In this document: piece by piece, positions 1 through 23,200 of the stretch
How positions within the stretch are numbered: position 1 is the first letter of the stretch
How the letters are laid out: each line of letters starts with the position of its first letter
Position numbers and translations under genes: made by a program
Notes under the pieces: generated by a model
Told to the model about the DNA's origin: nothing
The model's input: the letters and a program-made list of their open reading frames with translations, nothing else
Databases searched by the model: none
From: Sporopachydermia quercuum
Taxonomy: Eukaryota
DNA: 64,000 nucleotides
Assembly: GCA_001599295.1 (NCBI GenBank)
Contig: BCGN01000010.1
Coordinates: 62,001 to 126,000, forward strand
Reading direction: 5' to 3'

Positions 1-1
1 G

Positions 2-331
2 GACCGATTACTTGAGAATGGCAATTCAAGTTCGGAACACGGCTCAACATCGGAAGCAGACTCAACTACAAGTTCCAGCGTAACTTCAACCTCGGCTGCG
101 CCATCATCTAGACGTCGGATGAGGAAGAACACTTGCTATGAAGCAGTTTATCATAAAGCGTCTAAATTACTCAATGGATACCCTCTAACTAAAGGACAAC
201 AAATGGGAGGATTCAATCTCGGCAGTACTGTTGTGTTGGTTTTTGAAGCTCCCCAGAACTTTGAGTTTACTACTAAGATAGGTCAGAAGGTTAAAGTAGG
301 AGAAGGTTTAGGTGTTATTAAGGATGATTGA
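2..331 (+). CDS. PSD1: Phosphatidylserine decarboxylase 1, C-terminal part (gene starts before the window)
   Basis: Frame is open from position 2 (DRLLENG...) to TGA at 329-331. It contains GGFNLGSTVVLVFEAP, the LGST pyruvoyl autocleavage motif of PSD1. Confidence 0.93.
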   Translation, partial: DRLLENGNSSSEHGSTSEADSTTSSSVTSTSAAPSSRRRMRKNTCYEAVYHKASKLLNGYPLTKGQQMGGFNLGSTVVLVFEAPQNFEFTTKIGQKVKVGEGLGVIKDD

Positions 332-2134
332 GGAAATATAATTGTGGGGTAAAGTTCGAATTCGAATTTGATGTTGCTACTGCAGTAATTGGAATACCAG
401 CATTTATTGTTGTTGGGTTCTTGCACTAATTATAGCTCTGCTACAATAGTTCATTTGATACTACAAACATTCATTTGGTTTCTTTCATATATAGACTGGT
501 TCAAACTACTAGTGAAAAGGATCCTTTGATATTGAACACTATCATCAGCATATAGATAAAAATTATTCAATGCATATTTCATTTTAGTTGATTTCTTGCT
601 GCATAGTAGAGTTAATACAGTTAATGTTCAGCGAAAAACAAATAATACATAATTAATATACTCAAGTTTTTATTGACGGCATTCATTGATTCTTTCATTA
701 ATGTTATAATTAATGTTTTGGTTAATTAATATAACAGAGTTAGTATATCAAAAAACAATGATTTATGATCAATGAATATTAATGTAATTATTGCAGTAAT
801 TGATACGTAATTTATGTAAAAGTTACCACAATCATTACTATTACATTTATAAATTAATGATTCATTAATGCATATGTAATTAATCAACCTCTTATTTACA
901 TTTATTACATTTTTACGGCAACCAATTTTTTTTTCACAATTTCTTCTGAATAGAAAACACACAAACTGAGTATTTGTTAGTTGGCCTTGAATACAAAAGT
1001 CTTGTCAGCAGCAAATGAACAGAAATAAAGCAATCAGTAATTATTGCAATAAGTCGATCTTTCGTTTATTTTCTTGGTATAAATGAAAATAAATGCTCAT
1101 TAGAAGTACAGTAATGAACAACATACGCTTGATGTAGAGCAAATAAGCTTAAATTAAAACTGATTTTTAGAATGCACTATATTATTAGCTTAGCAATAGC
1201 ATAGAGATCATACTGAAAACGTTTCTGCTTCAGGTTAAACGTAGCCAGTTGATTATAATTTGCAGCCGTAAATTCAAGCTCAAGTTTGATATAGTCACAA
1301 GTATTATATTCATTTGTTATCAGTCATTGGTACTAAGTTTAATTCATGCTATTTATACTGTTTATTCAATTTAAGAAATTTATGCTATTAATGCAATTAA
1401 TGTTCATAGCTATAGCGTTGATGAAGATGTAATTTGAACCTTTGAGCCTTTAATGAACTTATCAATATATATATGAGCAGCTCGTTGCGCTGTGTATTTC
1501 ATTGCCGAAATGCTCATCAAAGTTCTCTTGAAGCAACATTGTGTACAGAGGAAGTGATTATTCAGAGCGAGTGACAGGTTTCCCGTTCGATATGAAATCT
1601 GAGGAATAAATGTAATGCAATTGGTGGATGAACTTTATTATGTTATTATGTTATTCTGCATAAAATCTTTGCTGTAAACAGACAGGAGTGCCGGGACGGA
1701 ACGGAGCAGAGCACGTGGAAGGCCAATAGTTGGCAGATTGTTTCCGTAGTTGTTCGCTGTTTCGGATGTTTCCGTGTCATCCCGAATAACGGAAACAATC
1801 AGAATCTCTCTTTCCAAATACCAATTAAAATCACAAACCAATTATTTTGCTGCATCGTTTACTACTACATCGATTCCGCTATTTTCTCCGTTTACTGGTC
1901 TATGTTTTCCACTATCCGTCTCAGATAGTGTCTCCGGTATCCAGAAATCACTCCCCAGGAATATTCGCCCATTTCATCATCTTTTATGCTACACATCCGA
2001 ACTGTTGCTACTATGATTGTTTTAGGTTCAGACGACAAAATGCGTATATTCTTCTTCCGCTTCTTTCCGAAATCTTTTCCTAAATCCGCTCTTATCTTTT
2101 CCTGCATTTTCTCTTATCCTCTCCGCATTTCTTC

Positions 2135-5100
2135 CTATGACAAAAACTTCTTCTTCAGCATCCAAACGTTATTCTTCAAATTCTCAACAAAATGCGTGTT
2201 CAACGGCTGATTTTCACCATTTTCATTGAAATCGGAAAAAGCAAATAGTAATTTCATATTCCACAAATCGTCCATCGATTGTACATTTGAAAGAGTTGAC
2301 TTTAAGGATAATTTTGTATCTGTGATAGTTGACGAGAGGATAATAGGCTGGAAAGGGTCAGTATTAGCTAGATTGGGTTTATGTTAGTATCTGAATGTGG
2401 GATAAGGTGGAAGTAGAGGAAACAATAGAATAAAAAGAGAAAATGATGCTATGCAACCGTTTCCGTAATTCCCATTATTTTTCCTTTCTTCCTTCTTTTT
2501 TTTTTTTGGGAAAAAAAAGCGGAGACTTTTCCCATTAAAAGAACAGAACAATAGAATACTTACCGCTTTTTATCACGTAATTCAGCTCTGATTCATCGAC
2601 ATTGCGGAAAACATTCAACCGAGAAACGGGTTTCAAAACATCCGAGGTCTCAGAATCAAATTCCGCTTCCCGAGATTTAAGCCGAAATTTCACCCAATGC
2701 CGGGAGTTTAGATTAGATTTCTTGGCGATATATATAGTATAATTTCCGGCAATAAACGATCGGGTTAGGAAAGACTCGGAATTGAACTTTAAATCGACAG
2801 GAAAACACCCATCTCGTTCCGTTTTGATCTGAATGATCTCGGATATTTCCGGAATCAATGCCGGAGTCTTAACTGTGATACGCGTACTATTGCCGTCATT
2901 ATTTCCGCCTCTATCTGAACCAGGTTTCAAAGTTATCTCCACTTCCTGGATAATCGGCATCTTACTCTCTGAATCTCGGACAACCAAGCATCGTCGGTTT
3001 ACCGCTAATGCCCAGAAATGCCGAAGTGCTTGTAAATAAACTCCTTGATCTTCAGAATCTCTTGGCAGTAACGGATAAAATGATATGACCATGCATGCAA
3101 CTGAAAACACGTCCCGGGAAAACCCGTATTGTCCGCCTCCGAGAAATAAGATCCCCAGACCTAAGCTCGATGCCACGTTAACGCCAAATTTCTGCGTTTC
3201 CAATACTTGGTTATGTAATATTCGAAGTCTCCGAAGTACTCGTAGATCACCCGTACCGGCGACAATCACCGATAATAACAATCCAAGTAGTCCAGTAAGT
3301 TCGGACACAGCTTTCCGGGTCAATTCGGAATCAAATCTCCGAGCTTCTAATCCCGAGATTCGGAAAAACTGGTCGAAAACTGATTCAATTGTGTCCCGAG
3401 CTTCGGAATTGGACGTCGATGCAAACCTCATTGCTATGGCAAACGCAGCTCCGGCGATAATGTTAAAATATCCAAGCTGGGAGCTGGAAAGCTCCGAGAT
3501 TTCGGATAATGAGTACTTCTCGGATAAAACCGGTGGGACTTGTTCGTTTATCCATTGCAAATTGGGACGTATTTCCGACCAGCAGATTAAATTCCGGCTT
3601 AATACTAATATTAGAAGTAAATCTGGTCGGATGTAATCTAATAGTTGAATAGTATTAGGTATACAAAGCCGTTCATACATGTATTTCTCTTCTGTTTGTA
3701 GAAACATAAACCCGAGTGCTAAAATCCCCCCGCTTCCGCTTTGGTCGTATTCTATCCGAGTTTGGAAGTCCCTTTTCCCTATTGCCAAATTAAGTAGCCT
3801 TTCTTCAAGTCGCAAATCGCCTAATCCGGCAGGAGGCCGACCTCGGCCTAGGTTAATCAAACCTAAACTTATCCCTGCCGAAAGTCGATAAGCTTCTGTC
3901 CCATTTCCGGGGCTCACATCTATTCCATCATTGCTGTCCGATCCCGACGGTGTCCCAGATATCTCGGATAACTGAATTTCACACATTCGACGATGCTGGC
4001 TTCCGAGGAACAATAAACCTAATCCAATCAACCCCGCAGTTTGCACTTGCGGATGCACATTCAGGTTCGACGACCCCGCAGGAAGCATTGCTATCACATG
4101 CACAGAGAGAATTTTAGTAAGCATAGAGTTCATAGACCCTCGGGCTGAGGCCGCCATTCCGATGAGTAAACCTACCGATGTGTAAAGGTGCTTTGGCCCA
4201 AGGTAGTTGTACATATGCCACTCTTCCAGATGACGCAAATGGCCATTTAATCCGAGGCCCAAGAGGAAACCGGAGTGATTCGGAGTTAAACCTTCGGTAG
4301 GTTTATTGAAAACGACCCAGGATCCGGATATTCCGGCGAAATCTCGGGATATACTTAACCCCGCATTCACCCCACAATGGAAGTTGGCCCAGTTAAGTGA
4401 GTTATCCGAAAACTCGGATTTATCCGGGAATAAAGTTCCTAAATGGGGTTTAATTTGTACACCAAGATTAAGTTTCGGAATAGGACATTTTTCGGTTAAA
4501 AGCGGAACTCTGGCGGAAAATCCAAGGGCGGATTTGCCGAATGCAGCGGCTAAAGTTCTTATTGCTACCGAAACAGTTAATTCGTTCCGCTTATTGATTA
4601 CCGAGCTTTCCGACTCAACTTCTGCTTCAAGCTCAATTTCCGGCTCATTTTCGGCGTTTGGTATCCGAGTAATTCCGTTTATGGCTTCTGTTCTGGTCGA
4701 AAACCCTATGTTGGGTGTAACTTTATTAGGGAAAGTTATTATCTGGGGTTTCGTATTCTGTAGTAGCTTCTGGGCTTCCGCAAATCTCCGATCAGTTGAG
4801 AAAATTAATCGAGTCACCGCTATCCGATCCGCCTCGTACCGAGAGTCCCATGGACTCACAACCTCTGGATCTCGGAGCGAATGCAGTAAACTGCGGATGT
4901 CGGAAGTTTTATCAGAAGATGCCGACATTCTCGGTAAAGATTGGAATATATCGGAAGAGGTTAAAGCTAAAAGGTCTGTTCTGCCCGTTAATTGCAATTG
5001 AGCCTTCAGCTGAGTTTCATTTGTTGTTCCGAGCCTTTCCGGTTCAAATTCCGATGCCGAGGCTAATTCTGAAGTTAATTCTGATGAGGAGAAACTTGTA

Positions 5101-7220
5101 GAACATCCGAGAATAGAGGTTTTCAAGGGAACGGAGATTCCGTCGGGAAAAAACTCTAAATCTCGGGCCGAGATACCTAATTCTGCCATCATATTGATAA
5201 CGTCACGAGCGGAAAATGCCGAAGACACAATACCTTCATATAGTTTTAGTACAGCGAATATCCGAGGGGTTACAAACTCATCAATCTCCTCTGAGCCTTC
5301 GGCCAATTCCGACAACGTAATCAACGGAATTATCGGGCCGCGGAATAAACTAACTAGTGATTCTGTCACATTGGGCGGAGTTTTAACTATTTCCGGTAAT
5401 AAAAGTCGAGATTTCCGGTCGAAATCACCGTTGCCGAGATCATAGTAGTAGATCCACTTATCTGACCATCCGAGCCATGCACAGAGCTGACGAATTAAGG
5501 TGCCGATATTATTTACATGTGAATTATCCGGTGCTGTGGTGTCTAACTTAAAATCCTCTCGGATTAAATGCAATCCGAGAATTATCGAAGGTAGAAGGTC
5601 GGATAGAATAGCGACCTTTGGTTCAGAATTATTCGGATAAGGGAATTGGGATAGAAATCCAAATTGGGGAATATCCCATTCCGAGTTTAACTCCCAATCG
5701 GGAAAACAAGCAATGAAGTATCCAAAAATCACGTACACAAATGCCTCCCATTCGTTCTTACTCGAAGAATACCGTAAGGCCGAAAACCATAAAAGCCGAG
5801 CTTGCTGATAGATTTGATCTCCGGCTAAGATTCGGAATATCTGTAAACCTCGGGACACAATCTCTGTTTTGGGAGATAGAGTCAAGGTTAACTGAACCAC
5901 TGATGNTTGTGCGTCGCATGTAAGGTACAAATTGTCATGAGAATAGCCGAGAAAAGTATGGAAAGATAGATTCAGCGGGATTGGTTCCGAGCTTAGATTC
6001 CGAAACGGATCAATGAGTTTGAAGTTTCGGGAATTCTCGGAAACTATAATCAGGGCAGGGTCTGATTTAGGGGTTTTGTGGCAATTCCCAGGCGAGTGTC
6101 CAAGTAAATTACCTGATTTGTCCGAGTTACTGTAATTCGGGTGCAGAGATGGTTTGGAATAAATGCCAATGAAATCTCGGGCAGCAAAAGTTGACCGAAA
6201 TTGAAACTTTGGAACATTTATCGGGCCGGAAGCGGAACGGAACATGAATAAGCTTGCTAAGTTAACATTCATATGGAGAAGAATTAGCACCATTTGATCG
6301 TCGGAATCGATTAAGTCGGCTTTATGGATGCCGAAATCGGCCGAGACTCTGAACTGATTTATTTTTGTAACCACTAAGTCTCTTCTAAGCATTGAAACTT
6401 CTAGTAAACTTACGGGATTATTGTTTCCGAAATCGCCTGAAGGTTCAAACGAGGAAACTCGGTTATCTTTCCCAATTGAGTCAAATTGACCGTGTTCTTC
6501 CGATACCGGAAGTCGAGATGCCGAGCTTATCCGCCGAGATGAGCTTCTTCTCCGGGCATTTCCTCCTAATTGGCCCGAAAATCCTAAATGACGCTTGGCT
6601 AATGATCTCATATGATACACAAATAAAACCTCATTAGCTAAAGTTACAAACAGAGAGGATCGATTATCCGGTGACACAAACACAAGATCCTCGGAACCGG
6701 AAATTGCCGAAGTCGATGAGGACACAACTGTGCCTAAATCAAGTATCGGATCAATCATTGAAAAAAAGATTGGAGCAGTCGTTGGAAGTTGTAGTTCCGC
6801 ATCCGAGATTTCGGGCTTGCGCTGAAGTATTAATCCCCGATCGTACGGAAATACCCGCTCGGGTTTAAAAGGAAGATGTACCACGTGAGTTCTTCCATCA
6901 GTGTAGTATATATGGCAGAATTCGGATATTATCACAGCCAACGCTTCGGAAGTGGATACGTAAGTGGATGAGGACACTGATGCCGAAGAAGATACGGAGG
7001 ATGACCGGAATTCGGTAATAACAGCATGATCTATAGAGGAGTTGTTGTAGGTGAGTGTTTTCAGTGGTAATCCGCCCTGTGTCCATATGGCTTTGTCTTT
7101 GTATATGTAAATAGTATCGCCATGTTTTGACATCAGAATTTTATTAGGAGTTTCACCGTCAGGAGGACCGTTGGGATGGTTGTGTGACCACGGAACAAAA
7201 GCTTCTACTGCGTTTTTCAT
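2135..7220 (-). CDS. APC1: Anaphase-promoting complex subunit 1; exons 7220-2564 and 2367-2135
   Basis: 1561-aa ORF with PC repeats (HSGFLLGLGLNGHL, SVGLLIGMAAS, LQALRHFWALA). Splicing out 2563-2368 adds in-frame ...ANTDPFQPIILSSTITD...DDLWNMKLLF...VENLKNNVWMLKKKFLS*, which resembles fungal Apc1 C-termini. Confidence 0.93.
2368..2563 (-). other. Spliceosomal intron near the 3' end of APC1 (196 nt)
   Basis: GTAAGT donor at 2563, TACTAAC branch point at 2389-2383, TAG acceptor ending at 2368; splicing keeps the frame. Confidence 0.88.
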
Positions 7221-8306
7221 TTTGGATCACAATATTGAGATTTCTTCCGAGATATCTTCCGTCAGTAGGTTTTGTTGTGGGAGCAACTGGTTGCCGCTTG
7301 AGAGCAATGGATTGTAGAATAACGGACTAATTGCCAGTTTGGCACAAAATACCGTCTTTCTAATAGTAAACAAACACGGAAGATCCAATAAGTCAATCTC
7401 TCATGTATTTTCGGCAGGATTTAATTTTGAGAACACATGGAAATAGGCATGGAAATGTGTGACCCATATTTTCAGTGCAGTAGATAAGATATGCATATTC
7501 ATTTATGTACATAGTAAAAAATGACAAATTGTTTTGGAATGACACAATGCGTTTTCAGTGATCATATGCAAGGAAAGTTATTAAGAGATAATTTCATAGA
7601 AGTGAATGACTGGTGCGTAACAGAGCAAATACCGATTAAAAAAAATTTTGTTATCAAAACTTTCTTATATTTGAAACTATGATGAGCTTTATATATTTAT
7701 TAAATCTACTATTGATTCAAATATATTCAATTGTTTTACTTGGTGGCAGTGAAGAATAGTAGGAAGTTGAGACATAATGTTAGAACTCTATTACGTCTTG
7801 ATAGATTTCATGTCATAGATATGTGAACCATTGTCTGTGAATAGAAGTAATTGCTTCTGTTGTAAAGTAGTTGATATGTTCTTCTACAACAGAACAGAAA
7901 GTTGGATGAAGCCAAGTAAGCATTATTATAAAAACCAATTATTTCATAACCAACAAAACATATTATGTCTTCTGTTTTCTCTTATATCATGTCAATCAAC
8001 TTATACTCATCTCATCTGTTCATGTCATGACTTGTCCCATGTCACCTTACTTTTCAGAAACCACTCTCTATTATGGGGCAATATTTATATAGCTATCCAA
8101 CAGTATTCATTGTTAACACTTGCCTTGTAGACATACATATACAACAATCAATAAAACAACTGTAAAATCTACAATAGTACTGTGAAGTCGCTTTCAATTC
8201 AATAAATTTATAGTATCTCAATCGATCAGTTGGTTTCGTTACCATATCTGCTTCCGCCCCAAGCATCTTTTCATTGTACGACTAGACCACGACATATCAT
8301 ATCACA

Positions 8307-8579
8307 ATGGGGGAATCTAACATAATAAGCATATTCAAACCAAGACCCGAAGGCGAAATTGAAGTAGAAGATTGTTTTGCTTGTCAAATGATGTCAGCAG
8401 CGTTTTTGTCCGGTGCTGGAATCTATCTTGCAACAGGGGCAGTGTTCAGTGATAAACCAAATCCTGCTGTCTCTGCGAGATGGAAAACATCTGTTAAATG
8501 GTTTGGTATGGCAATGATAGGTCTAGGGATTTACAGAGCAGGAGAAGGATTTGTATGGAAGAAAAATGAGTATTTTTAA
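8307..8579 (+). CDS. Small DUF4536-like (YDL157C/DMAC1-like) membrane protein, probably mitochondrial
   Basis: 90 aa with DCxxC (EDCFACQ) followed by two Gly-rich hydrophobic helices ending GIYR. Confidence 0.75.
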   Translation: MGESNIISIFKPRPEGEIEVEDCFACQMMSAAFLSGAGIYLATGAVFSDKPNPAVSARWKTSVKWFGMAMIGLGIYRAGEGFVWKKNEYF

Positions 8580-8711
8580 TTGAATATTCTCATGTAAATA
8601 GGAATATATGACAACGATATATGATTGATTTTAGGAAGTTATGATATGGGGTAATACTGTATTGAACAGTACAACTTATTCTTAAAAGGGAACAATTACA
8701 ACATTATTGTT

Positions 8712-9584
8712 CTATAATGCTAAGCGTCTTTTAGCAAAACAATAGAAAGTTGACCATTCAATTTTGATAACGGTTTCATCAGTCCATCCTAGTTTCTCTT
8801 TCAATTCATCAATGAACTGATCAGCAACATCTCGCTCATTAGGATTCTCTTCTTTCCAAGTATGGTAGCCACTCCAAGTAGTTACATAGCGTTTGATTTC
8901 AATTAAACGAGCATTTTTACCAATATATAAAGCCGTTGGTACCTTGTCACCTTTTTCAGGTTTATAAGTGACCAATTCAATGTTCTCATACAAATCATTA
9001 GGTGGTAGTACTGTAGGGTAGTAATACCTTAGAATGTCTCTGTTAGGTTGCTCCCAATAAGGACCAATGAATCTCGGATCATCATATGTGTATTTTGAGT
9101 ACAGCTCATTCGCTAAAGGACAGTCAATGAAAACAGGATCTTTATACATCCAAATAGCGAAAGTTCCACCAGGTTTCAACAACTTGCTTACGACAGAAAA
9201 TACCTGATGAGAATCAAACCAATGAAAACACTCAGCAGCAGTGATCAAAGAGAATTGTGTACCTGCTGCGAAATTAGTATCAACAGTCTCTGCTTTGGAA
9301 ATAATGAAGCTTACTTTGTTTTTAATATCGTCATGAGCACCATTTTCTAATGCTTCGTTTGCTTGATTGATCATTACTTTAGAAGGATCTGCACCAATGA
9401 TTTGTTTATCAACGAACTTAGCCAACGCCATTGTAGCTTCTCCTGGTCCACACCCTAAGTCAAGAGCAGTTTCTATGGAGGCATTGTGATATGCAATCAG
9501 CTTTTCATAAAACTGGTCATCATATGTTGGTCTGAACTCTAGATAGTTAGACGATGAGAAGTTGGAATTTGAAAAGGTAGCCAT
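8712..9584 (-). CDS. TMT1: SAM-dependent methyltransferase, trans-aconitate 3-methyltransferase (Tmt1/Crg1)-like
   Basis: MATFS...Y..FRPTY N-terminus, LDLGCGPG motif I, LITAAECFHWFD, LKPGGT, PYWEQP, TWSGYH. Confidence 0.8.
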   Translation of the reverse strand: MATFSNSNFSSSNYLEFRPTYDDQFYEKLIAYHNASIETALDLGCGPGEATMALAKFVDKQIIGADPSKVMINQANEALENGAHDDIKNKVSFIISKAETVDTNFAAGTQFSLITAAECFHWFDSHQVFSVVSKLLKPGGTFAIWMYKDPVFIDCPLANELYSKYTYDDPRFIGPYWEQPNRDILRYYYPTVLPPNDLYENIELVTYKPEKGDKVPTALYIGKNARLIEIKRYVTTWSGYHTWKEENPNERDVADQFIDELKEKLGWTDETVIKIEWSTFYCFAKRRLAL

Positions 9585-10333
9585 TGCAGGTAGTATGTAA
9601 GAATAGACACAGCAATTGAAGAAGAGTCAAGAGAGTTTTCCACCTTACAGAGCTTCGATCTATCAATCAAACCAGCAATCGAATCGAACAGGGAAAGTCT
9701 ATTTAAATAGTCATAAGTAACAGGTATTCCCGATGTTGATAACTAGATTATTCTAAGTGATGAGACACAATAGAGAATTAATCCGGGGTTGTTAGGGAAT
9801 TCAGATTTCTTAGATAGGAAATTTCGTTAGGTTGAAAAACCATGACATAACCTAGCAGAATAACAGAATTCGAAGAAATAATTTGGGCTGCTTCAAAGAT
9901 GAGATAATGATAATACTAGAAATATATTATGAACTCGGNTATCTTGTATTAAGCCATTGTGTGGTATTTATAGCTTGTAAATACAACAGTTGTTGATATC
10001 ATTTTATGCAAATGATCCTTCCGATACCGGTCCTGTAACGGAGAAAAGGTTAAACGTTAAATCTTTTACGGTCTAAACGGGGAATAACCAACTCTTCTCT
10101 TGAAATTTAATGAGGCGGAAATAATTTGAAGATGCACGTGACATGTTTGTAATCAGTGGTCCACTTCCATAAGATGGTGAGGTGAACCGAATTACTTCTC
10201 CTAAGCTTCAGTGCTTATATCGATGGCAAAGGCAACATCTAATCATATAACGGATATCGAATTGGAGGAATATTCCAAATAAACGAAGAAGAGACTTAAT
10301 TCGAGAATATAGCTGGAAGATAGAAAAGCATTT

Positions 10334-11089
10334 ATGATGGCAGTAACAGAAGTGACAAGTGAAACACATTTTACTGATTTGACAACCTCAGTCAGTAAAG
10401 ATCGGTTAACAGCTATTTACTTCCACACACCATGGGCAGCGCCATGCATCCAAATGAACTCAGTTTTTCAACAGTTATCAGAAGTAAACCCTGAAGTTTT
10501 GTTTTTATCTGTTAATGCTGATGATCTTCCTGAAATCTCCGAATTATTTGATGTCACAGCAGTTCCCTTTACTGTTTTTGTCAGAGATGGCACTATTTTG
10601 AAGGAACTATCAGGTGCTGATCCCAAGCAATTTGTAGCTACTTTACAAGAGCTTCTTACAGGTTCAGAAGCAGCTCCGGCAAATGTAGTTACTGGAATTG
10701 CCACTCAACAATCAAATACAGAACCAGACGCACCAGCAGAGACTAATGCCCCAGTACAAGAAGAAAGCGAGGAAGATTTGAATGAAAGACTGAACAAATT
10801 GGTCAGCGCAGCTCCAGTAATGTTATTCATGAAAGGGACGCCAGCAGCTCCACAATGTGGATTTTCCAGACAGATGGTTGCTATTTTGAGAGAGCATCAA
10901 GTTAGGTTTGGATTCTTTGATATTTTAAAGGATGATATAGTGAGACAAGGATTGAAGAAGTATTCGGATTGGCCAACTTATCCTCAACTCTACATCAACG
11001 GAGAACTACAGGGCGGTTTGGATATCATAAAGGAATCTTTAGAAGAAGACCCAGAGTTTTTTACCAAGGCTGTTAACGGGGAACTATGA
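10334..11089 (+). CDS. GRX3: Monothiol glutaredoxin with N-terminal thioredoxin domain (Grx3/Grx4)
   Basis: WAAPC thioredoxin-like motif, then LFMKGTP..PQCGFS and WPTYPQLY..GE..GG. Confidence 0.95.
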   Translation: MMAVTEVTSETHFTDLTTSVSKDRLTAIYFHTPWAAPCIQMNSVFQQLSEVNPEVLFLSVNADDLPEISELFDVTAVPFTVFVRDGTILKELSGADPKQFVATLQELLTGSEAAPANVVTGIATQQSNTEPDAPAETNAPVQEESEEDLNERLNKLVSAAPVMLFMKGTPAAPQCGFSRQMVAILREHQVRFGFFDILKDDIVRQGLKKYSDWPTYPQLYINGELQGGLDIIKESLEEDPEFFTKAVNGEL

Positions 11090-11977
11090 TACTGTGTCCT
11101 AAAACTAATTTCTAATCATATATTGTATTCTTATTCTTATATATTTAACATACTACATGCCTTTTATTATCTACATTAATGTCCTGGACTATCACGTGTA
11201 TGCCTGTTATATTGTTATTAAGATCAATGTACCCAATAGAGATGTGTTCCGTAAATCATGAAATTCTGTTCTGTTGCTTCCACCTATTGCCCACAATATA
11301 CCATATGATGGAATTGATAAACTTGAGTTCAAATAATTAATAATATTTTACCTCCGAATTAAACAAATCGGAAACTATGTAAGAATAAAGTTCTCCACCT
11401 CATGCAACGAATAAGGAAGCCTGGATTATTATTACTGTGCTCGCAAATTAAGCTTCTCCCTATACAGATCACCTACATGTAAGATGCATACAGCGGTCTT
11501 GTTCAGGTACCATTCAATGATACGGTAAAACATCGAAATAAATGATTAATGTGTTGTGAAGAAAATTAAAAAAATGGAGAAACAAAATTTGATAGTAAAT
11601 AGCTGGACTAGAGAATCAATCTCGCAAGTATCATAGCTGCACTACAACTTGAACATCAACCCTCGATAGTTGCTCTTCGTTCAATGTCTCATCATCCTTG
11701 ATTCTAAAAAATGCATCACATATGCTCATTACTTCACCTCGATTACTTCGATATCATGAGACAATTCATGTCCATACTTGAACACTTTGGAACCACTGCC
11801 AAACTCGGTCATTTTCTCGGCTTCTCAGCCCTCCAGCTCTCATTATTCCATTTGCCGTTCCGACAACTTCCGTGCGGCTGTATACTCCAACACGTACTTT
11901 GCATCACCAACTATTTCTTCCCTCCAGGAAACTATCGGAACTCTCTTCAAGTGATCCATCTCATTAAACTTTCCGCA

Positions 11978-12217
11978 CACGTGACCCACAAGGAGCCCAA
12001 AACGTATACCGCCCATTACCCTCCTGTTTCCACTGCGCAATGAATCCTGTTCTGTGTTATCAGTGCACAAAAGTTAATAACTATTTTCGTACCCACTAGT
12101 ACAAACGCTAATTACAAAAAAATTTTTCACACCGTAAATTTTTTTTTCCTTATTATGGCCGAATTTTCTGTGAGCGCGCGGCCTTTTTCATTTTTGCTCT
12201 TTTTCTACTTTATATAT
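11978..12217 (+). promoter_or_regulatory. YEF3 promoter elements: Cbf1-type CACGTGAC (11978-11985), RRPE AAAAATTTTTCA (12118-12129), GCGCGCG (12174-12180), T-tracts and TA-rich box
   Basis: Motif matches upstream of a highly expressed translation factor; factor assignments are by analogy to other yeasts. Confidence 0.55.
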
Positions 12218-12575
12218 CCAAACGTATATCCATCTACACATATTTTCTTCTTTCTTTCTCTTCTTCCCTCTTTCCTTCTGAGTACTGGATAACTAGAAAT
12301 TGTTAACAATTTATTGTTGCTTTTTTTTCACCTACCAATAGAGGACAGACTTGTATTTTATTGTTTTCACGGATTGGTAATTGATTTGTATTTCTTTGAC
12401 AAATAACATATTCTGTTTGATTTCTGCCACATCATCAAACAAACAAAGAGTATTTATTATTGTTCCCAAAGGATATAAAACAATAGGTTAAGGATATTAC
12501 TGGGGGTTTAATTTTGGTTATTATTAGATTTTTATACATTGATTCTTTTTTAAAAAATAAAAACGACTGGAAAAA

Positions 12576-15500
12576 ATGGGTACTGCTCCTCAAGTTTTAA
12601 CAGAGCTCTTGCAAAAGCTCACCATTTCATCAACTGAAGATGATCGTGAGGCTGCTGCTACTAATGTTGCATCATTCATCAATGGACCAATTGAAGAACA
12701 CAGCGCTCCATTTGCCTTTTTCGACGATTTGAAGAAAGCTTTGAATAACAAGAAGGACGTCAATGCTAGATTAGGAGCTCTCTCTGCTATCTCTCACATT
12801 GCCTCTGTCAACAACTTGTCACCCACCATTGAACCTCAAGTTGTAGCTTTGTTAGGAGATGTTTTAGCTTTGGTTGGTAACGACAAGCAAAATGATGTTA
12901 AGGCTGCCGCTACCAAGGCTTCCAAGGACATTGTCAGTGCTATCACTCCTTCCAGCATCAAGGCTCTTTTGCCTCCTATTACTGCCTCTATTGCTTCTTT
13001 CAAATGGCAAGAAAAGATTGCAGCTTTGGAATGTGTTTCCCTTTTGGTTGAAACCGCACCTATCCAAGTTGCTTTAAGAATGACTGAATTGATTCCTGTC
13101 TTATCTGAAGCCATGTGGGATACTAAGAAGGACGTCAAGGAACAAGCTTCCAAGACCATGATCAAGTGTACTGAAACCATTCAAAACAAGGATATTGAAA
13201 AGTTCTTGCCTGCTTTGGTCAAGTCAATTGCTCAACCTACCGAAGTTCCTGAAGTTGTCCATACGTTAGGTGCCACTACTTTCGTCTCCGAAGTTACAAC
13301 TCCTACTTTAGCCATTATGGTTCCCCTTTTATCTAGAGGTTTAGTTGAAAGAGACACTTCCATCAAGAGAAAGGCTGCTGTCATTATCGATAATATGTGT
13401 AAGTTGGTCGATGATCCTCAAGTTATTGCTCCTTTTATGGACAAGTTGTATCCTTCATTGAAGCACAACTATGCTAATATCGCCGATCCCGAAGCTCGTG
13501 GTGTCACCTTACGTGCCATCACCACTTTGAAGAGAGTTGGTGAAATCGGTGAAGATGATAAGATTCCCGAAGTTTCTACTGCTGGTGATACCGCCGTCAC
13601 TCTTAGAGAGTTGAAGTCCTTGTTAGACGAAAAGAAGATCAAAGTTGACCCCAAGTTCGACGTTGTCCTCAACTACGTTGCCTGCATTGCTGGTAACTTG
13701 ATTGACGAACGTATCGTTGACTCTGAACCTTGGTACTCCAACATGACTCCTTTCCTTACTATCTTCTTACACGAAGCTGAGGCCAAGGACATCACCGAAG
13801 AGTGGAGAAAGAAGGCTATTGCCAACATTCCTGGTGGACCTGTTTTCGAAGATGAAGATGAAGAAGGTGAAGAGTTATGTAACTGTGAGTTCTCTTTGGC
13901 TTATGGTGCTAAGATCTTGTTGAACAGAACTCAATTAAGATTGAGAAGAGGTAGAAGATACGGTCTTTGCGGTCCTAACGGTTCCGGTAAGTCTACATTG
14001 ATGAGAGCCATTGCTAATGGTCAAGTCGAAGGTTTCCCTACCCAAGATGAATGTCGAACTGTCTATGTCGAACACGACATTGACGGAACTCACGCTGACA
14101 CAGCTGTGTACCAATTCGTCTTGGATGATGGTAATGTTGGTACCGAAGAAGAAGTCAGAAAAGCATTGAACGATTTCGGTTTCACAAATGAAATGATTGA
14201 AATGCCTATTTCCTCCTTATCTGGTGGTTGGAAAATGAAGCTCGCTTTGGCCAGAGCTGTCTTGAAAAAGGCTGATATCTTATTGTTAGATGAACCTACT
14301 AATCATTTGGATACCGTCAACGTTGCTTGGTTAGTCAACTACTTGAACACCTGTGGTATTACTTCCATCATTGTCTCTCACGACTCTGGTTTCTTGGACA
14401 AGGTTGTTGAATACATTATCCATTACGAAAGATATAAGTTGAGAAAGTATAAGGGTAACTTGTCTGAATTTGTCAAGAAGGTTCCTTCCGCCAAGTCTTA
14501 CTATGAATTAGGAGCTTCTGAAGTTGAGTTCAGATTCCCTGAACCTGGTTTCCTTGAAGGTGTCAAGACTAAGCAAAAAGCTATTGTCAAGGTCCAAAAC
14601 ATGTCGTTCCAATATCCTGGTACCACCAAACCTCAAATCAGTGGAATTAACTTCCAAGTCTCCTTATCTTCCCGTATTGCCGTCATTGGCCCTAATGGTG
14701 CAGGTAAATCTACTTTGATTAACGTTTTGACCGGTGAATTATTACCTACCACTGGTGAAGTCTACGTCCACGAAAACTGTCGTATTGCTTACATTAAGCA
14801 ACACGCTTTTGCCCACATTGATTCTCACTTGGATAAGACTCCTTCTGAATATATTCAATGGCGTTTCCAAACCGGTGAAGATCGTGAAACTATGGACAGA
14901 GCTTCCAGACAAATCAACGAAGATGATGAAAACAGCATGAACAAAATCTTCAAGGTTGAAGGTACTCCAAGAAGAATTGCCGCTATCCACGCCAGAAGAA
15001 AGTTCAAGAACTCTTACGAATACGAATGTTCCTTCTTATTGGGTGAAAACATTGGTCAAAAGAATGAACGATGGGTACCTATGATGTCTGTTGACAATGC
15101 TTGGTTACCAAGAGGTGAATTGATTGAAACTCACTCCAAGATGGTTGCTGAAGTCGATATGAAGGAAGCTTTGGCTTCTGGTCAATTCAGACCTTTAACC
15201 AGAAAGGAAATCGAAGCTCACTGTGAAATGTTAGGTCTTGATGCTGAATTGGTTTCTCATTCTAGAATCAGAGGTTTATCTGGTGGTCAAAAGGTTAAGT
15301 TAGTCTTAGCTGCTTGCACTTGGCAAAGACCTCATTTGATTGTTTTAGATGAACCTACCAACTATCTGGATCGTGACTCTTTAGGAGCTTTGTCTAAGGC
15401 TCTTAAGTCTTTCGAAGGTGGTATTGTTATCATTACCCATTCCGCTGAATTCACCAAGGATTTAACTGACGAAGTTTGGGCTGTTGTTGATGGTAAGATG

Positions 15501-15722
15501 ACACCATCTGGCCACAACTGGGTCCAAGGTCAAGGTGCTGGTCCAAGACTAACTGAAAAGGAGGATGAAGGTGATAAGTTTGATGCTATGGGTAACAAGC
15601 TCGAATCAAAGAAGAAGGCCAAGAAGTTAAGCAGTGCTGAATTAAGAAAGAAGAAGAAGGAAAGAATGAAGAAGAAGAAAGAACTTGGTGATGCTTATGT
15701 TTCATCTGATGAAGAATATTAA
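12576..15722 (+). CDS. YEF3: Translation elongation factor eEF3
   Basis: HEAT N-terminus, two ABC cassettes ([28 protein letters not shown]), chromodomain insertion, Lys-rich tail ending YVSSDEEY; strong codon bias. Confidence 0.98.
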
Positions 15723-16834
15723 ATGGGTTGGTTATAATTATCTCTCATAATTGTAATTAATTTTCTTGATAGAAATATACATACATATGTTTCAATTTTT
15801 AAGTATTTTATAGATAATTGGCTGGAGGAATTAACCATTGAGTCAGTTGATTTGATGTGGCGTCGAAATTATTGATTCTTTGGTTTTTCTAATCAAATAA
15901 ATTTACTTGATTTGTTTATATTTTAGTTGAATTGTAACTTATCGTACTCATTGTATTTATCTTGAGTTATGTCTAATATTTATCAACATAGTGGATGTAA
16001 TCAATTGCAGAGCAACAACAGATTACGCATTTATTTCCACCATTAACGTATGTTGTGTTGTGCTCTTGTTTTTTAGGCTCTCCTCTTCTATTACACTGGA
16101 TTCTAGATTCTGGTCTCTAACTAACGAGTAATATGTATGCTTTTGATATTTAATGTCACTGTTGGAGTTAATTGGTAATATTATCCAAGGGAAGTTAATC
16201 TTCATGTTTGGTTGACATAGAGAAACGCTTCTATTGATTCCAACAATTATAATGCCCTGATTTGAAGAATCCTCTGTGCCATTCTAATATGCAAGAATAC
16301 TAGATAAAGATCATAGACATATCACATACATAGACTATGTATCTCCCACAAAAACGGCTGTTTTGTTTCAAGATGTGTATCTTTTTTGTTTGGAGTATTC
16401 TCTTGATCTTCGGAGATGTAAACAATGGGAATATAAATAATGGTGCAGCTTTTCTCAATCTTTTGATAAAAAACAATTATCACCAGATTTCATTCATGTC
16501 TACTTCATGCTGCTTACTTCAAAGCGGGTGGTCGAGCTGTAAGGTGAACAAGCTATTAGAACAGAGATTGTCAGCCTGATAAAATAGATATCAATTAGAC
16601 ATCATGGACTAACAACTGTTGGTTCTCAAAAAATCCTAAGGTCCTAGTGACTGAGAAATTACTAAAATATGAAATTGGGAAAGGAACAGCGTAGGAGAAC
16701 ATCAATTCTTCTACTTATTTAGTTCATATATCTATATGACATCTCGAACCCATATATCCACCATAACAAACCATCAAAGCAAACATTAACTTATCTTAGT
16801 CATTCAAAATGGTATATACCCATGACACAGATCA

Positions 16835-20231: not shown

Positions 20232-23200
20232 CTAATGCTTCTTCTTCTTTCCTTTTCCACCAGCACCTCCATTGCTACCAGCACTTGCTCCTTTGGATCT
20301 TGCTTTACCAACAGCTTTACTCATTGCATCAGGGACAACCAATTTGATCTTACTAACAGCAATAGGTAACAGCAAATCAGTATCTTTGATCTGTTTCAAG
20401 ATCTCCAGTTCTTTGGGCCAGGGGTAAAACTTGTCACTCTGGGTGGTATCAACCTTCAAAGGATTAGTAAACATATACAAACATTGATTGATAGCTTTGC
20501 CTTTCTTCAGGTTACCTGGTTGAATCTTCACTTTATACTTATACTTCAATAAAGCGTTCCAAGGACCAAATATTGGAACAAGATTAATAGGATTATCATC
20601 CGAATTCAATATAGGAACAATGGAATCAAGCTTATTAATATAGTCAGTATCCACAGCATTATCAGCGTTACTATTATCTAATAATTCCTGCTGTTTTCTT
20701 ATCAAACTTTCCTCATAACGTTTCTTCTGCTCCTGTTTTCTTTTCAATTGCTGTAGCCGTTGTAACTCTGCTTCCTCAGCAGCTTTCCTCTTTTCACTTT
20801 CCTTCTCAACACCTTTTAATGTCCCTAAAGCTTGCATACGTAGATTTCGCTCTTCTTCATCTTGATCTGCATATTTGGTTGCCATCTTCTTCAGTTTTCC
20901 TTTCTTTCCTCTTACTTTTGAAACAGAAGCATTAGTACCACCAGTAGATTTCTTAGAAGACACGTTCAATTCATCAAGCTGTGACATTATATCGTTTATC
21001 GTACTACTGGCAGCAGAATCAGAAGTAGAATTCATCTCGTTGTTAAAAGTATTGGCATAGTTTGAGATATCAATTCCTTTCTTCATTAGTTTTCTTTCCT
21101 TAGCCGAAAGGCGTTTCTTACCTGCGACACCAGCAGCATTAGAAGAGATACTATCAGAATTAGTATCAATACTGGCAGCGCTGCTTTTACTATCATCCGA
21201 TTCATTTTCAGTTTCCTTTTCATCATTTTGTTCGAATTGTTCTTGTTGACGCTTGAAACTGTCTAAACCGTAACGCTCTGCTTGGGACTTTAAATCAGAT
21301 TCATCATCTTTATCAGCAGCAGTCGCGGTTGAATACGATTCTGTCTTCTCACTATCATTATCATTAGAATTAGAGGATCCAATGATACTAGAACCAGCGA
21401 CGGCTATTGTAGTATTCTTACTACCATCAGAATTATTAATGTTATCAGTGGAAGCTTCGTCATTGCCTGGATTCTTAGTACTATCACCATCGTTTGTCTT
21501 TTCATCATTCTCATCCATAATTTCCTCCTTTTCATCTACATAAACACCCATCTGCTTCTCTCTCTCTGTTCTCATCTCCTTATACCGGTGAGTGGTCTCC
21601 TCATCAACTAACCAACCTATGGCAAAGCCCATCACCAACTGACTAGGCGGCAGAAATACCTTATCTCCAGTGATAGCAAATTCACCAGGTTGCATGCCAA
21701 TCTCTTTCTGAACTTGATTATACTTAACCCACCAGGCCGATGTAACCATTTTCGCTTCCCATGCTTTAGATGTAGACACTGCAAACGTTCCTGCCTGCAT
21801 TAATGCCATTGGTGATACTTCGTCAAACCCAGGTCTGTTTTTAACTATTAGAGCACAGGAGCCTTCAATATCACTTGAAACGTAAACATCACCAGGTTTG
21901 AAGTATTTAGCATACAGAATATCGTTTTGGGCACCGTCTTTGCCTCCTAAAACCANGAACCCATCACTGGAAATGAACCAGTAAAATTTCTCAAACCAGT
22001 AGGGCTGCCTCACAGATTTTAACTGTTGGATATCAGATTTTAGATGCCTTTTCATGTCTCTGGATATTTTATCCTGAGTAGATTTCAAAGCATAATCAGC
22101 CTGTTTTATCGTTTTGTTTTGTTGAAGAGCGGCTTGCCGCTTCTTATCAAAATAGGTAACTGCATTGGCCCAGGCAGATATGCCAAGATCTATCGATACT
22201 TCAGTAGTTTTAACAGGAGAAGACTTTCCACGGGAACGGTTACATGATATGGAAGAACGGCCAGAGTCTGAGTCAGAATCGGAAGAACTATCAGAAGAGC
22301 TGTCGGAAGAGTTTTCGGAATCCAATTCCGAGCCAGAACCGGAGTCAGATTTGTTATTAGAATCGAAATCTTCGTTGTAGTAACTAGGCAAGGGTAGTAT
22401 CACTTTCACCCTGTTATTTTCCAAATCCAAAGGCAGTTTGATATTGGTAGCTATAGGATCTCTTCTTGACTGTCTTTCGGTAATCAATTTCTCGATATTC
22501 ACCCAATCCATGCTTTGATTGATATATTTCAGCACATACTCCTTAACTTGTTCCACCAAATCAGCGTTATCCTGTATAGCTTCACCTTGCAATTGGGATA
22601 ATTTCTGCTGTGTTTCCAGCGATTCCAACCGTTTATCACGTTCAGCTTTGGCAGCATTCAAACGTTTATCTGCCAATTTCTCTTGTTGCAATACTTTCAA
22701 AGAAGCTTTGGTTGCTTCAACAGTAGAAAAGAACCTGTCAGCAGTACGATTATAACCAGAAACTTTGATCAATTCGTATGTTTTTTCTTCAGTGCCTTTC
22801 GGAACTAAAGGTTTAAAAGGATGGAAATCATCAAAAATACGACTTTTATCCTCAGGATTAATTCCAGAAGGTAAATTATCAACCGTAGCAGCAATAATGC
22901 TGGTAGCAACACTACTAGTGTTTCTACTGTTATCTTTATAGGCAACTATATAACCAGCTAAAGATTCAGGCTCCTGTTTAATGGTAACATTGATACTCTG
23001 TAACGTTTCGACTGACTTCTTGATCGCCTGGACTATTAAACTGACTTGTGAAGAGTCAACTGATGATATGTCAATGTTAGAGCTAAGAGTGTCAGGCTCA
23101 ATTCCCACTTCATATAACGATTTAGTGATTAAACCTGACGATAAATAGCTCAAATGTGAGTATAGCAACTTGGAAATTGAATACTGTTTCCTTTGCTTCT

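Follow-up and report, generated by a model that had tools for sequence, protein, structure and literature searches.

A CCG word across the APC1 gene

APC1, an essential cell-cycle gene of the budding yeast Sporopachydermia quercuum, lies within a sharply edged domain in which the triplet CCG and its complement CGG are about six times as frequent as expected, and the force behind this word is strong or long-lasting enough to have reshaped codon choice, codon neighbourhoods and the amino-acid make-up of the protein. In the window, by which we mean the whole 64-kb stretch of DNA that was analysed, 260 CCG/CGG sites fall in 1600-7420 versus 42.6 expected with the rest of the window as reference (6.1-fold, z 33). 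The domain itself holds about 258 copies against about 39 expected, so that some 220 are extra, on both strands. The density is 47.9 per kb over 1691-2123 plus 2457-7412 and drops to 7.3 per kb across the remaining 56 kb. Bins of 1 kb contain 34-52 CCG+CGG in 2001-7000 and 0-15 in the 57 bins from 7001 on; with 300-bp windows, the minimum within 2600-7100 is 8, which is the 99th percentile outside, where the maximum is 11.

The enrichment reported in the initial annotation is therefore confirmed, and it is stronger than first described. Its five hand counts of CCG+CGG are exact on recount (11, 10, 2, 0 and 0). It had also considered that similar densities might be common in other genes of this genome; the 14 other long ORFs of the 64-kb window carry 3.3-11.4 sites per kb, and none of them exceeds 11.4.

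Limits of the domain and structure of APC1

The claim of a sharply bounded 5.7-kb domain stands as to its edges, since the last sites on either side lie at 1691 and 7412 and no others follow until 1583 and 7632, but its continuity is broken by a hole of 333 bp. The domain begins some 190 bp ahead of the APC1 ATG and ends roughly 445 bp beyond the stop, and its tracts alternate: dense at 1691-2123, at baseline at 2124-2456 and dense again at 2457-7412. The main dense block is exon 1 (2564-7220, minus strand, 4657 nt), with 228 CCG+CGG sites, or 49.0 per kb. Its product is matched by Pfam ANAPC1 (E 8e-25), and 1447 homologues were found, the best at 48% identity. The intron (2368-2563, minus strand, 196 nt) reads GTAAGT ... 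TACTAAC ... TAG, and its splice signals, frame and length are all consistent; its only sites are at 2457, 2463, 2520 and 2563, which makes the 5′ half dense and leaves the 3′ half not. Exon 2 (2135-2367, minus strand, 233 nt) encodes the last 77 codons and the stop and is CCG-poor, with 2 sites (8.6 per kb). The C-terminus of the spliced product reaches the ends of the orthologues, aligning with residues 1436-1534 of 1534 in one of them (P0004, E 3e-12). The ORF is unbroken and retains conserved APC1 motifs, and its intron is canonical. The hole (2124-2456) consists of exon 2 together with the 3′ portion of the intron: 2 sites are found in its 333 bp, where 16 would be expected at domain density (P(≤2) = 1.7e-5).

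Downstream of the stop, at 1691-2123, a further dense block forms the left edge of the domain, with 19 sites in 433 bp (43.9 per kb; P 1.3e-9 versus baseline). It is probably the APC1 3′UTR, and immediately past 1691 the minus strand appears to carry AATAAA-like signals. The sole sizeable ORF of this block, of 71 aa, has no Pfam family; its one database match, an IQ-repeat protein, was judged spurious. No Rfam family reaches the gathering score in 1-9000, where two weak matches have E values of 0.31 and 0.56, and no tRNA gene occurs in the 64-kb window. On the other side, the promoter-proximal 5′ flank (7221-7412, minus strand) sets the right edge, with 7 sites in 192 bp (36.5 per kb; P 6e-4 versus baseline). 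It is probably the 5′UTR, with transcription predicted to start near 7400 from an AT-rich, TATA-like stretch.

Beyond the left edge, the AT-rich spacer (332-1690) that separates PSD1 from APC1, two convergent genes, lies outside the domain and marks its boundary: it has 5 sites in 1359 bp (3.7 per kb), for which P(≤5) at domain density is 6e-22, and its GC is 0.22-0.29 over 401-1400. PSD1 presumably adjoins APC1 in S. cerevisiae too.

Identity of the word, strand and frame

The enriched word is BCCGV, with TCCGA at 14-fold and TCCGAG at 37-fold in the domain. A weak consensus, wTTCCGARAtt, surrounds the CCG core, and no single flanking position holds more than 0.53 bit of information. Among CpG contexts, CCGA/TCGG (9.7-fold), CCGG (8.9-fold) and CCGC (5.5-fold) are enriched, whereas ACGA (0.76-fold), ACGT (0.85-fold), GCGC (0.33-fold) and TCGA (1.7-fold) are flat or low. 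A CpG island, in which all contexts should be enriched, was rejected on the ACGA, ACGT and GCGC values. The two flanks of the CpG are interdependent (χ2 45.8, df 6): if they were independent, 82.8 CCGA, 53.5 CCGG and 32 TCGA would be expected, and 122, 30 and 20 are found. This over-use of CCGA with under-use of CCGG and TCGA is suggestive of a specific reader, as opposed to an effect of CpG or YCGR in general.

The plus strand of the domain carries 144 CCG and 116 CGG, with no switch of orientation along the domain. Sites in APC1 start at codon positions 1, 2 and 3 in 60, 101 and 68 cases, that is, 60 of the 229 are in frame. Since so few sites are in frame, the strands are about equal and the flanks are dense as well, the signal belongs to the DNA and not to translation, as was initially proposed. 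Precursors of the word are depleted diffusely, the strongest depletion being that of TCA/TGA, at 0.62-fold.

Composition and codon usage

The proposal that the signal is specific to a motif and is not a rise in GC has also held, as the other CpG contexts are flat and beneath the word lies an ordinary, AT-rich background like that of the host. With the word masked, the GC of the domain is 0.353, versus 0.353-0.402 in 14 other genes. GC3 of the two-fold codons is likewise that of the host (APC1 versus other genes: GAC 0.33 and 0.27, TTC 0.42 and 0.44, CAC 0.24 and 0.25, AAC 0.38 and 0.41), and Thr codon usage matches that of the other genes. The codons that differ are Pro CCG (0.37 versus 0.05), Arg CGG (0.34 versus 0.03) and Arg CGA (0.30 versus 0.10), with synonymous shifts of all kinds, from AGA to CGA and from CCT and CCA to CCG.

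Against the 229 sites observed, a null with reference codon usage gives 60.6 (z 21) and one that shuffles APC1's own codons gives 175 (z 7.6). The null that keeps GC3 at each position gives 149 (z 12), so that the shuffle named at the outset as able to explain the enrichment away does not remove it. Neither base composition nor codon choice, foreign origin or assembly error accounts for the excess of the word.

Spacing and periodicity

Pairs of sites 9-11 bp apart occur at 1.61-fold, versus 1.11 in synonymous shuffles, 2% of which reach 1.61; the excess is found in direct and inverted orientations alike, with no one orientation or spacing dominant. The initial annotation had pointed to a spacing of 10 bp or of a nucleosome repeat. 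No nucleosome-repeat period is found in the CCG spacing, where 43% of permutations reach the observed maximum, and the power of CCG/CGG at 10-10.75 bp is marginal against synonymous shuffles (z 1.9, reached by 4.3% of them). With uniform nulls, periodicity at about 10.5 bp is larger, at z 4.8 for CCG/CGG and z 7.1 for AA/TT, the latter versus 0.1-3.6 in 11 other 4.8-kb windows; for AA/TT it falls to z 1.6 against synonymous shuffles. The WW-SS amplitude per 147 bp at 10.4 bp is 14.5 in the domain and 8.9 elsewhere, a ratio of 1.63, compared with 1.12-1.47 at control periods. Most of the domain's periodicity appears to be carried by the protein sequence.

The protein and other fungi

In other fungi, 17 APC1 loci were compared and none is CCG-enriched: with their flanks, these loci have a CCG observed/expected ratio of at most 1, except for one 568-bp flank at 1.38. 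The word is restricted to this lineage, as judged by the fungal APC1 loci compared. In trees, the organism falls beside Dipodascales with APC1 as well as with RQC2, another gene of the window. The end branch is 1.46 for APC1 (median 0.47) and 0.72 for RQC2 (median 0.41). The composition of the APC1 protein is shifted toward Gly, Pro, Arg, Ser and Phe, and among 108 orthologues it is highest in Gly and Pro and lowest in Met and Tyr.

CCG sites avoid the constrained positions of the protein: the fraction of codons touching a site is 0.34 in variable alignment columns, versus 0.19-0.22 in the other classes. Within conserved columns, site overlap is 0.19 for derived residues and 0.20 for retained ones. 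Since derived residues are on sites no more often than retained ones, the word is not clearly the cause of the long APC1 branch.

What may have written the word

We tentatively favour, as somewhat the best of several uncertain readings, that the CCG words form a lattice along the gene body at which a putative CCG-reading protein docks. A short double-strand word with a CCG core would have been written across the whole APC1 transcription unit and kept because such a DNA-binding protein docks throughout the gene body. The putative reader may coat APC1 alone and thereby control its chromatin or transcription, the array acting as a whole-gene operator or roadblock. Both the reading by a protein and the effect of that reading are what we infer. 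In favour of docking we count the specificity and double-strand character of the word, its independence of composition and codon usage, the placement of sites away from constrained positions and, marginally, their spacing. The limits of the domain match one gene and the adjacent spacer is empty, which fits a function tied to the APC1 transcription unit. Zn2Cys6 proteins read CGG/CCG triplets, usually paired, tandem or inverted, at most 18 bp apart (PMC2246632, in excerpt). Several points count against docking. Among about 250 sites the contribution of each would be tiny, and selection per site should therefore be weak. Within the APC1 unit, exon 2 and the intron's 3′ part are nevertheless at baseline, the spacing signal is marginal at fixed protein sequence, the flanks of the word hold little information, and only one instance of the domain is visible within the 64-kb window. 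We know of no function that needs about 250 sites, and the clusters of docking sites known to us are in promoters, not across coding DNA. In a variant to which we give only slight weight, the lattice would be a chromosome-level cis element with a putative Zn2Cys6-type reader, serving for tethering or as a kinetochore-like platform. It would borrow the CCG logic of Cep3-style point centromeres and place it on an essential gene, so that its loss would be impossible. The empty spacer and the gene-shaped limits argue against a platform of either kind.

Close behind the docking lattice, and also no better than a possibility, ranks a fixation or mutation bias that is specific for the word and has no function, namely a locus-limited repair, conversion or transcription-coupled process favouring CCG. 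One may picture a eukaryotic analogue of very-short-patch repair, or motif-specific biased gene conversion, in which mismatches or lesions are resolved toward CCG and the sites are fixed regardless of fitness. Biased conversion overrides purifying selection, acts site by site and can stop sharply within a gene; in mouse Fxy, 28 replacement changes were gained in the pseudoautosomal part alone (both PMC2631073, in excerpt). The long end branch of APC1 and its extreme Gly, Pro, Met and Tyr contents are what such a bias would leave, strand symmetry, frame independence and the coverage of coding and non-coding DNA alike all fit it, and the 333-bp hole matches the size of a conversion tract. However, biased conversion should bring a general W-to-S rise, and two-fold GC3 is unchanged; the non-coding flanks, which are the least constrained, are no denser (36-44 per kb) than the exon (49 per kb); and the unconstrained spacer next to the domain is untouched. 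Because precursors are depleted diffusely and synonymous shifts are of all kinds, no single substitution signature is apparent, which also speaks against a bias. To our knowledge, no eukaryotic repair bias specific for CCG has been described.

The remaining explanations are weaker. Mosaic introgression, in which the dense tracts would derive from a putative, fairly close relative with the CCG word throughout its genome and the hole and spacer would be recipient DNA, appears unlikely: sharp edges and the alternation of dense and baseline tracts do look like a recombination mosaic, but at least four junctions would be needed in 5.7 kb, and none of the 17 fungal loci is enriched. A distant donor is opposed by the placement of APC1 where RQC2 is placed, and codon usage outside the word (Thr and all two-fold codons) and masked GC are those of the host, while the branch lengths, with roughly 0.6 extra changes per protein site, suggest a donor and recipient too diverged for homologous exchange. 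It is rather less probable that the words serve as the CG element in the rotational nucleosome-positioning pattern CGRAAATTTYCG and were selected for unusually stable nucleosomes on this gene. The consensus TTT-CCG-A-R-A-T-T resembles CGRAAATTTYCG (PMC5054146, in excerpt), and the periodicities against uniform nulls and the WW-SS amplitude given above agree with it; these periodicities, however, drop to z 1.6-1.9 against synonymous shuffles, the amplitude is raised at control periods as well, and no nucleosome-repeat period is present. Such a code also predicts a symmetric YCGR, and it is TCGA and CCGG that are under-used and the asymmetric CCGA that is over-used. We give little credence to a signal in the mRNA, by which CCG and CGG would pair within the transcript to structure it or would be sites of an RNA-binding protein. 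The domain does match the likely transcript limits, the 3′ half of the intron is spared, and complementary words on one strand would appear strand-symmetric; 200-nt folding has a mean z of -0.68 (23 windows), versus -0.02, -0.29 and +0.04 in three genes. Nevertheless, this effect is small, the antisense folds at least as well (z -0.85), as word content alone predicts, and exon 2 belongs to the mRNA yet stays at baseline, while the intron is dense in its 5′ half. It is scarcely credible that rare CCG, CGG and CGA codons were selected to tune or throttle APC1 synthesis: the over-use of these Pro and Arg codons is real, but most sites are out of frame, the non-coding flanks are equally dense, and shuffling the gene's own codons removes 54 sites. 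As the main cause, translation is refuted by the frame and flank data. Least of all do we believe in an artefact of assembly or sequencing, or in contamination, for which no supporting sign was found. Two studies yield contigs of 198 kb and 225 kb which, though both may be of the source strain, show 0 differences over 1-16000 and are each at the same depth as other contigs; the intact ORF, conserved motifs, canonical intron and adjacent PSD1 argue likewise.

Significance

If a protein reads the words, a gene would be controlled or packaged via hundreds of sites in its own coding sequence, a mode of regulation that we do not know from eukaryotes. If a repair or conversion bias wrote them, this would be the first word-specific, locus-limited bias in a eukaryote, and such a force could reshape an essential protein. 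On either reading, single genes can carry strong non-coding “second messages”, which skew codon usage and amino-acid composition as well as branch lengths and may mislead phylogenomics and selection tests.

Comparison with known systems

The domain resembles the mouse Fxy island at the pseudoautosomal boundary in having a sharp-edged compositional shift and a changed protein (PMC2631073, in excerpt). In islands of that type all W-to-S changes are favoured and GC3 is raised, whereas here two-fold GC3 and masked GC are unchanged and one word makes up the whole rise. A GC-biased conversion island of the Fxy type was accordingly rejected, the general W-to-S shift being absent, with a sharp boundary and fast protein change present. 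A horizontally acquired or introgressed gene was rejected as well: APC1 is not displaced in trees relative to RQC2, and its codon usage and composition are those of the host apart from the word.

Like HIP1, GCGATCGC, the highly iterated word of cyanobacteria, whose function was long obscure, the APC1 word is short, occurs on both strands, is independent of frame and lies inside genes (PMC5861425, PMC4390886, both in excerpt). HIP1 is a palindrome of 8 bp that occurs genome-wide and is linked to methyltransferases, whereas the APC1 word has 3-5 bp, is not palindromic and is confined to one eukaryotic gene within the window. The pairing-centre motifs of C. elegans are spread over large, mainly non-coding regions. 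They share with the domain a regional enrichment of a motif, theirs recruiting the zinc-finger proteins ZIM/HIM-8 (PMC11605055, in excerpt), but they are 11-12 bp long, and nothing ties the APC1 domain to pairing. With the nucleosome bendability pattern CGRAAATTTYCG the domain shares a CG with a 5′ T-run and a 3′ A-run and, as far as uniform nulls show, a periodicity of about 10.4 bp (PMC5054146, in excerpt); it differs in the asymmetry of its flanks and in the weak periodicity left once the protein is controlled for.

Among proteins of the Zn2Cys6 (Gal4) family, Cep3 reads the CCG of CDEIII, and Rgt1 and Aro80 use multiple CGG-type sites. The known clusters consist of few promoter sites, or of one CCG in a 25-bp centromere element. 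In contrast to Zn2Cys6 clusters, the domain spreads some 258 sites across 5.4 kb of chiefly coding DNA, in every orientation and with a reader that is putative. What it has in common with the homotypic half-site clusters of this family is the CGG/CCG core, here at 6.1-fold. The half-sites of the family are often paired within 18 bp (PMC2246632, in excerpt), and the mild excess of pairs at 9-11 bp in the domain may be of this kind.

Extent and Anatomy of the Dense DNA

The CCG-dense DNA over APC1 lies in AT-rich yeast sequence with a GC content of about 0.36. In one-kb bins, CCG and CGG together number 34–52 per kb between 2001 and 7000, and 0–15 per kb in the rest of the window from 7001 on. 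The initial annotation had inferred a sharply bounded 5.7-kb domain with the help of five hand counts, all of which our recount reproduces exactly. Between 1600 and 7420, 260 sites (CCG or CGG on either strand) are observed against 42.6 expected from the rest of the window (6.1-fold, z 33). Longer words show a stronger excess (TCCG/CGGA 9.6-fold, CCGAG 18-fold, TCCGAG 37-fold), and no 300-bp window within the domain has fewer than 8 sites, a count that lies at the 99th percentile of the windows outside it. Two contigs, of 198 kb and 225 kb and each from a different study, match window positions 1–16000 with 0 differences; therefore, the domain is not an assembly error or other artefact, although both read sets may derive from the source strain.

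APC1 is on the minus strand, and its product of 1629 residues is encoded by two exons, with a C-terminus that aligns up to the very end of its orthologues. Exon 1 (7220..2564) is separated from exon 2 (2367..2135) by an intron of 196 nt with GTAAGT, TACTAAC, and TAG signals. The collapse of density at the limits holds, with 3.7 sites per kb in the AT-rich spacer towards the convergent PSD1 gene (332–1690) and 3.0 in the right flank (7413–8400), but the domain is not continuous. It consists of a block at 2457–7412 (36.5 sites per kb in the 5′ flank, 49.0 in exon 1, and 36.7 in the 5′ half of the intron) and of Block A at 1691–2123, downstream of the APC1 stop, with 43.9 per kb. Between them is a hole at 2124–2456, comprising exon 2 and the 3′ part of the intron, where 2 sites in 333 bp represent the baseline; the probability of so few at the density of the domain is 1.7e-5. 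One edge of the hole is no more than 12 bp from the APC1 stop, and the hole starts some 70 nt 5′ of the branch point in the intron. At the hole edge, the intron carries a tract of the nucleosome-excluding type (2474–2520), in which a run of some 12 T is followed by GGG and 8 A.

By eye, polyadenylation-like signals are found past 1691 and a TATA-like stretch beyond 7412; if these are read correctly, the domain would match the APC1 transcription unit. Block A contains no recognisable gene or RNA. As a gene, it has no Pfam family, and its one match among 1.84 billion proteins is an IQ-repeat artefact; as an RNA, it matches no Rfam family at gathering score (two weak matches, E 0.31 and 0.56), and it holds no tRNA. 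Two plus-strand ORFs antisense to APC1, at 3085–3636 (183 aa) and 4681–5001 (106 aa), are probably a side effect of DNA that is rich in CCG and poor in stop codons. Isolated single Ns occur at 18 window positions (e.g., 5906, 9939, and 19520), and one falls in APC1 exon 1, giving an X in the translation.

One Word, at the Level of DNA

CpG contexts are raised in the domain only when C precedes or G follows (CCGA/TCGG 9.7-fold, CCGG 8.9-fold, CCGC 5.5-fold). ACGA, ACGT, GCGC, and TCGA stay at 0.33–1.7-fold, and a CpG island is accordingly rejected. Around the word, A is avoided on the 5′ side and T on the 3′ side; the word is best described as BCCGV. The two flanks of the CpG are not independent (χ2 45.8, df 6): CCGA, which is asymmetric, is found 122 times where 82.8 are expected, and both symmetric tetramers, CCGG and TCGA, fall short of expectation. 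Pro CCG has a frequency of 0.37 in APC1 versus 0.05 in the 14 other long ORFs of the window, and Arg CGG 0.34 versus 0.03, while usage of two-fold and Thr codons is the same in both. The word makes up 13.5% of exon 1; once it is masked, the GC content is 0.353, at the bottom of the range of the other genes (0.353–0.402). The masked GC and the host-like two-fold codons thus bear out the suggestion that the enrichment is motif-specific, and they rule against a general GC rise or GC-biased conversion. A longer repeat unit or repeat family is likewise rejected, as only families of 12–29 nt made of the same words, at 64–100% identity, were found; the repeat search returned no dispersed element.

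That the signal belongs to the DNA and not to translation, as the initial annotation had it, is upheld by its presence on both strands, at all codon positions, and in the non-coding flanks. The plus strand of the domain has 144 CCG and 116 CGG, with no switch of orientation along it of the kind that marks a break- or origin-centred process. In the exon-1 ORF, counted as 2535–7220 and thus extending a few codons into the intron, 60, 101, and 68 sites begin at codon positions 1, 2, and 3; with this distribution and the dense non-coding flanks, rare-codon selection is rejected. In place of these 229 sites, re-encoding the protein by reference codon usage would give 60.6 (z 21), recoding that holds each codon's GC3 state 149 (z 12), and shuffling APC1's own synonymous codons 175 (z 7.6). 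GC3 therefore does not fully explain the enrichment. In the part of the genome that the window covers, such densities are not common either, as none of the 14 other long ORFs exceeds 11.4 sites per kb. The ceiling for synonymous recoding of this ORF is 487 sites.

Spacing of the Sites

Pairs of sites 9, 10, and 11 bp apart number 17, 23, and 14 against 11.4 expected at each distance, equally in direct and inverted orientation. Against uniform nulls, a periodicity of about 10.5 bp is evident for CCG/CGG (z 4.8–5.0) and for AA/TT (z 7.1 in the domain versus 0.1–3.6 in 11 other windows), and the 147-bp WW–SS amplitude at 10.4 bp is 1.63 times that of the rest, versus 1.12–1.47 at control periods. 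Against synonymous shuffles, z falls to 1.9 for CCG/CGG and 1.6 for AA/TT, and 2% of the shuffles match the 9–11-bp pair excess; much of the periodicity is carried by the protein sequence. Of the two periods that had been suggested for the sites, the helical one is thus clear against uniform nulls and weak against synonymous shuffles, and there is no nucleosome-repeat period. Gaps have a CV of 0.97, and counts are under-dispersed per 100 bp (VMR 0.56) and 200 bp (0.54) but not per 50 bp (0.95) or 150 bp (0.85), and we do not claim even spacing on this basis. As evidence, site spacing is weak.

Features of the Protein and Comparison with Other Loci

Of 120 listed orthologues, the 108 with 1400–1750 residues were compared, the other 12 being excluded by their length. 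In this set, Gly and Pro reach their maximum and Met and Tyr their minimum in this APC1, with Phe, Arg, and Ser near the top and Lys, Leu, and Thr near the bottom. The shifts correspond to whether a residue's codons carry the word. In an alignment with 40 orthologues, the fraction of codons touching a site is 0.34 in variable columns versus 0.19–0.22 in the other classes; derived residues at conserved columns show no enrichment (0.19 versus 0.20). The end branch of APC1 is 1.46 versus a median of 0.47 (22 named orthologues), and that of RQC2, another gene of the window, 0.72 versus 0.41 (20 named orthologues). The evolutionary rate of APC1 is thus about double the expectation, as gauged by one other gene and different taxon sets. 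Since both trees put the organism beside Dipodascales, nothing points to a distant donor, and a distant foreign origin is rejected.

A metagenome scan provided 17 APC1 loci of other fungi, at 30–44% identity. Their observed/expected ratio of CCG+CGG is 0.55–0.99 in the gene and 0.53–0.93 in flanks of more than 1 kb, compared with 2.30 in S. quercuum APC1 and 0.59 elsewhere in the window. The comparison with orthologues, run here on other fungi, therefore finds the pattern at none of the 17 loci, and the enrichment is not a general property of APC1. Protein collections contain no close relative (best identity 48% for APC1, 42% for RQC2). For two other organisms sequenced in the same study, the contigs extend over EF3 and a short stretch of PSD1 but not over APC1. 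Pieces of EF3 (13977–15681), 23–48 bases long, are matched at about 84–100% identity (0–6 differences) by further contigs of S. quercuum, which points to additional, paralogous ABC-F genes at other sites of its genome.

On the plus strand, the 3′ portion of the PSD1-like ORF (1–230) has 7 sites in 230 bp (P 0.0018 versus baseline). Six of the seven fit BCCGV, and the cluster lies in a Ser/Thr-rich linker that precedes the conserved C-terminus of the decarboxylase. We reject it as a second domain, as low-complexity coding fits better and a similar cluster exists within RQC2. There, in the minus-strand ORF 20232–23825, 9 sites lie in 110 bp at 22231–22340, with the same words (TCGGAA, TTCCGAG, ACCGGAG) encoding a Ser/Asp/Glu-rich acidic run. 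It may be that the word is this genome's habitual spelling of Ser–Glu and Ser–Asp repeats.

Candidate Explanations and Nearest Known Systems

The domain over APC1 is real, highly significant, lineage-specific, and unexplained. The observation is a single one, made in one window of one strain and apart from relatives, and we therefore hold any mechanism at low confidence. Tentatively, the sites could form a docking lattice on the APC1 gene body for a putative CCG-reading protein. Such a lattice would fit the word specificity, the asymmetric flank rule, and the mild one-turn spacing, as well as the coverage of a transcription unit while the cheap adjoining spacer is left unused. However, so many sites would be an extravagance, we know of neither a reader nor a function for them, and exon 2 is not accounted for. 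Indeed, none of the explanations that we tried accounts for the sparing of exon 2 when the 3′ flank is dense.

A repair or conversion bias specific for the word and limited to the APC1 unit is a doubtful but serious candidate, although we know of no CCG-specific bias of this kind. It would override protein constraint, as in Fxy (PMC2631073), and leave a tract-like hole; every substitution type, however, would need to contribute. An unlikely origin is a mosaic derived from a putative CCG-rich close relative: the alternation of dense and baseline tracts has a mosaic look, but it is made less likely by a background resembling the host's, by the position of APC1 in the trees, and by how many junctions it would take. 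Reading of the word through mRNA structure is very improbable, for the mean folding z of −0.68 on the sense strand, versus about 0 for three other genes, is accompanied by −0.85 on the antisense strand.

Our search of the literature, confined to the papers proper, turned up no account of a word-specific domain limited to one gene of a yeast. The nearest analogues each depart from the APC1 domain in a tested feature. They are the clusters of Zn2Cys6 sites and the CCG of CDEIII (PMC2246632), Fxy-type conversion islands (PMC2631073), iterated words of the HIP1 type (PMC5861425, PMC4390886), the motif clusters of C. elegans pairing centres (PMC11605055), and the CGRAAATTTYCG bendability pattern (PMC5054146).
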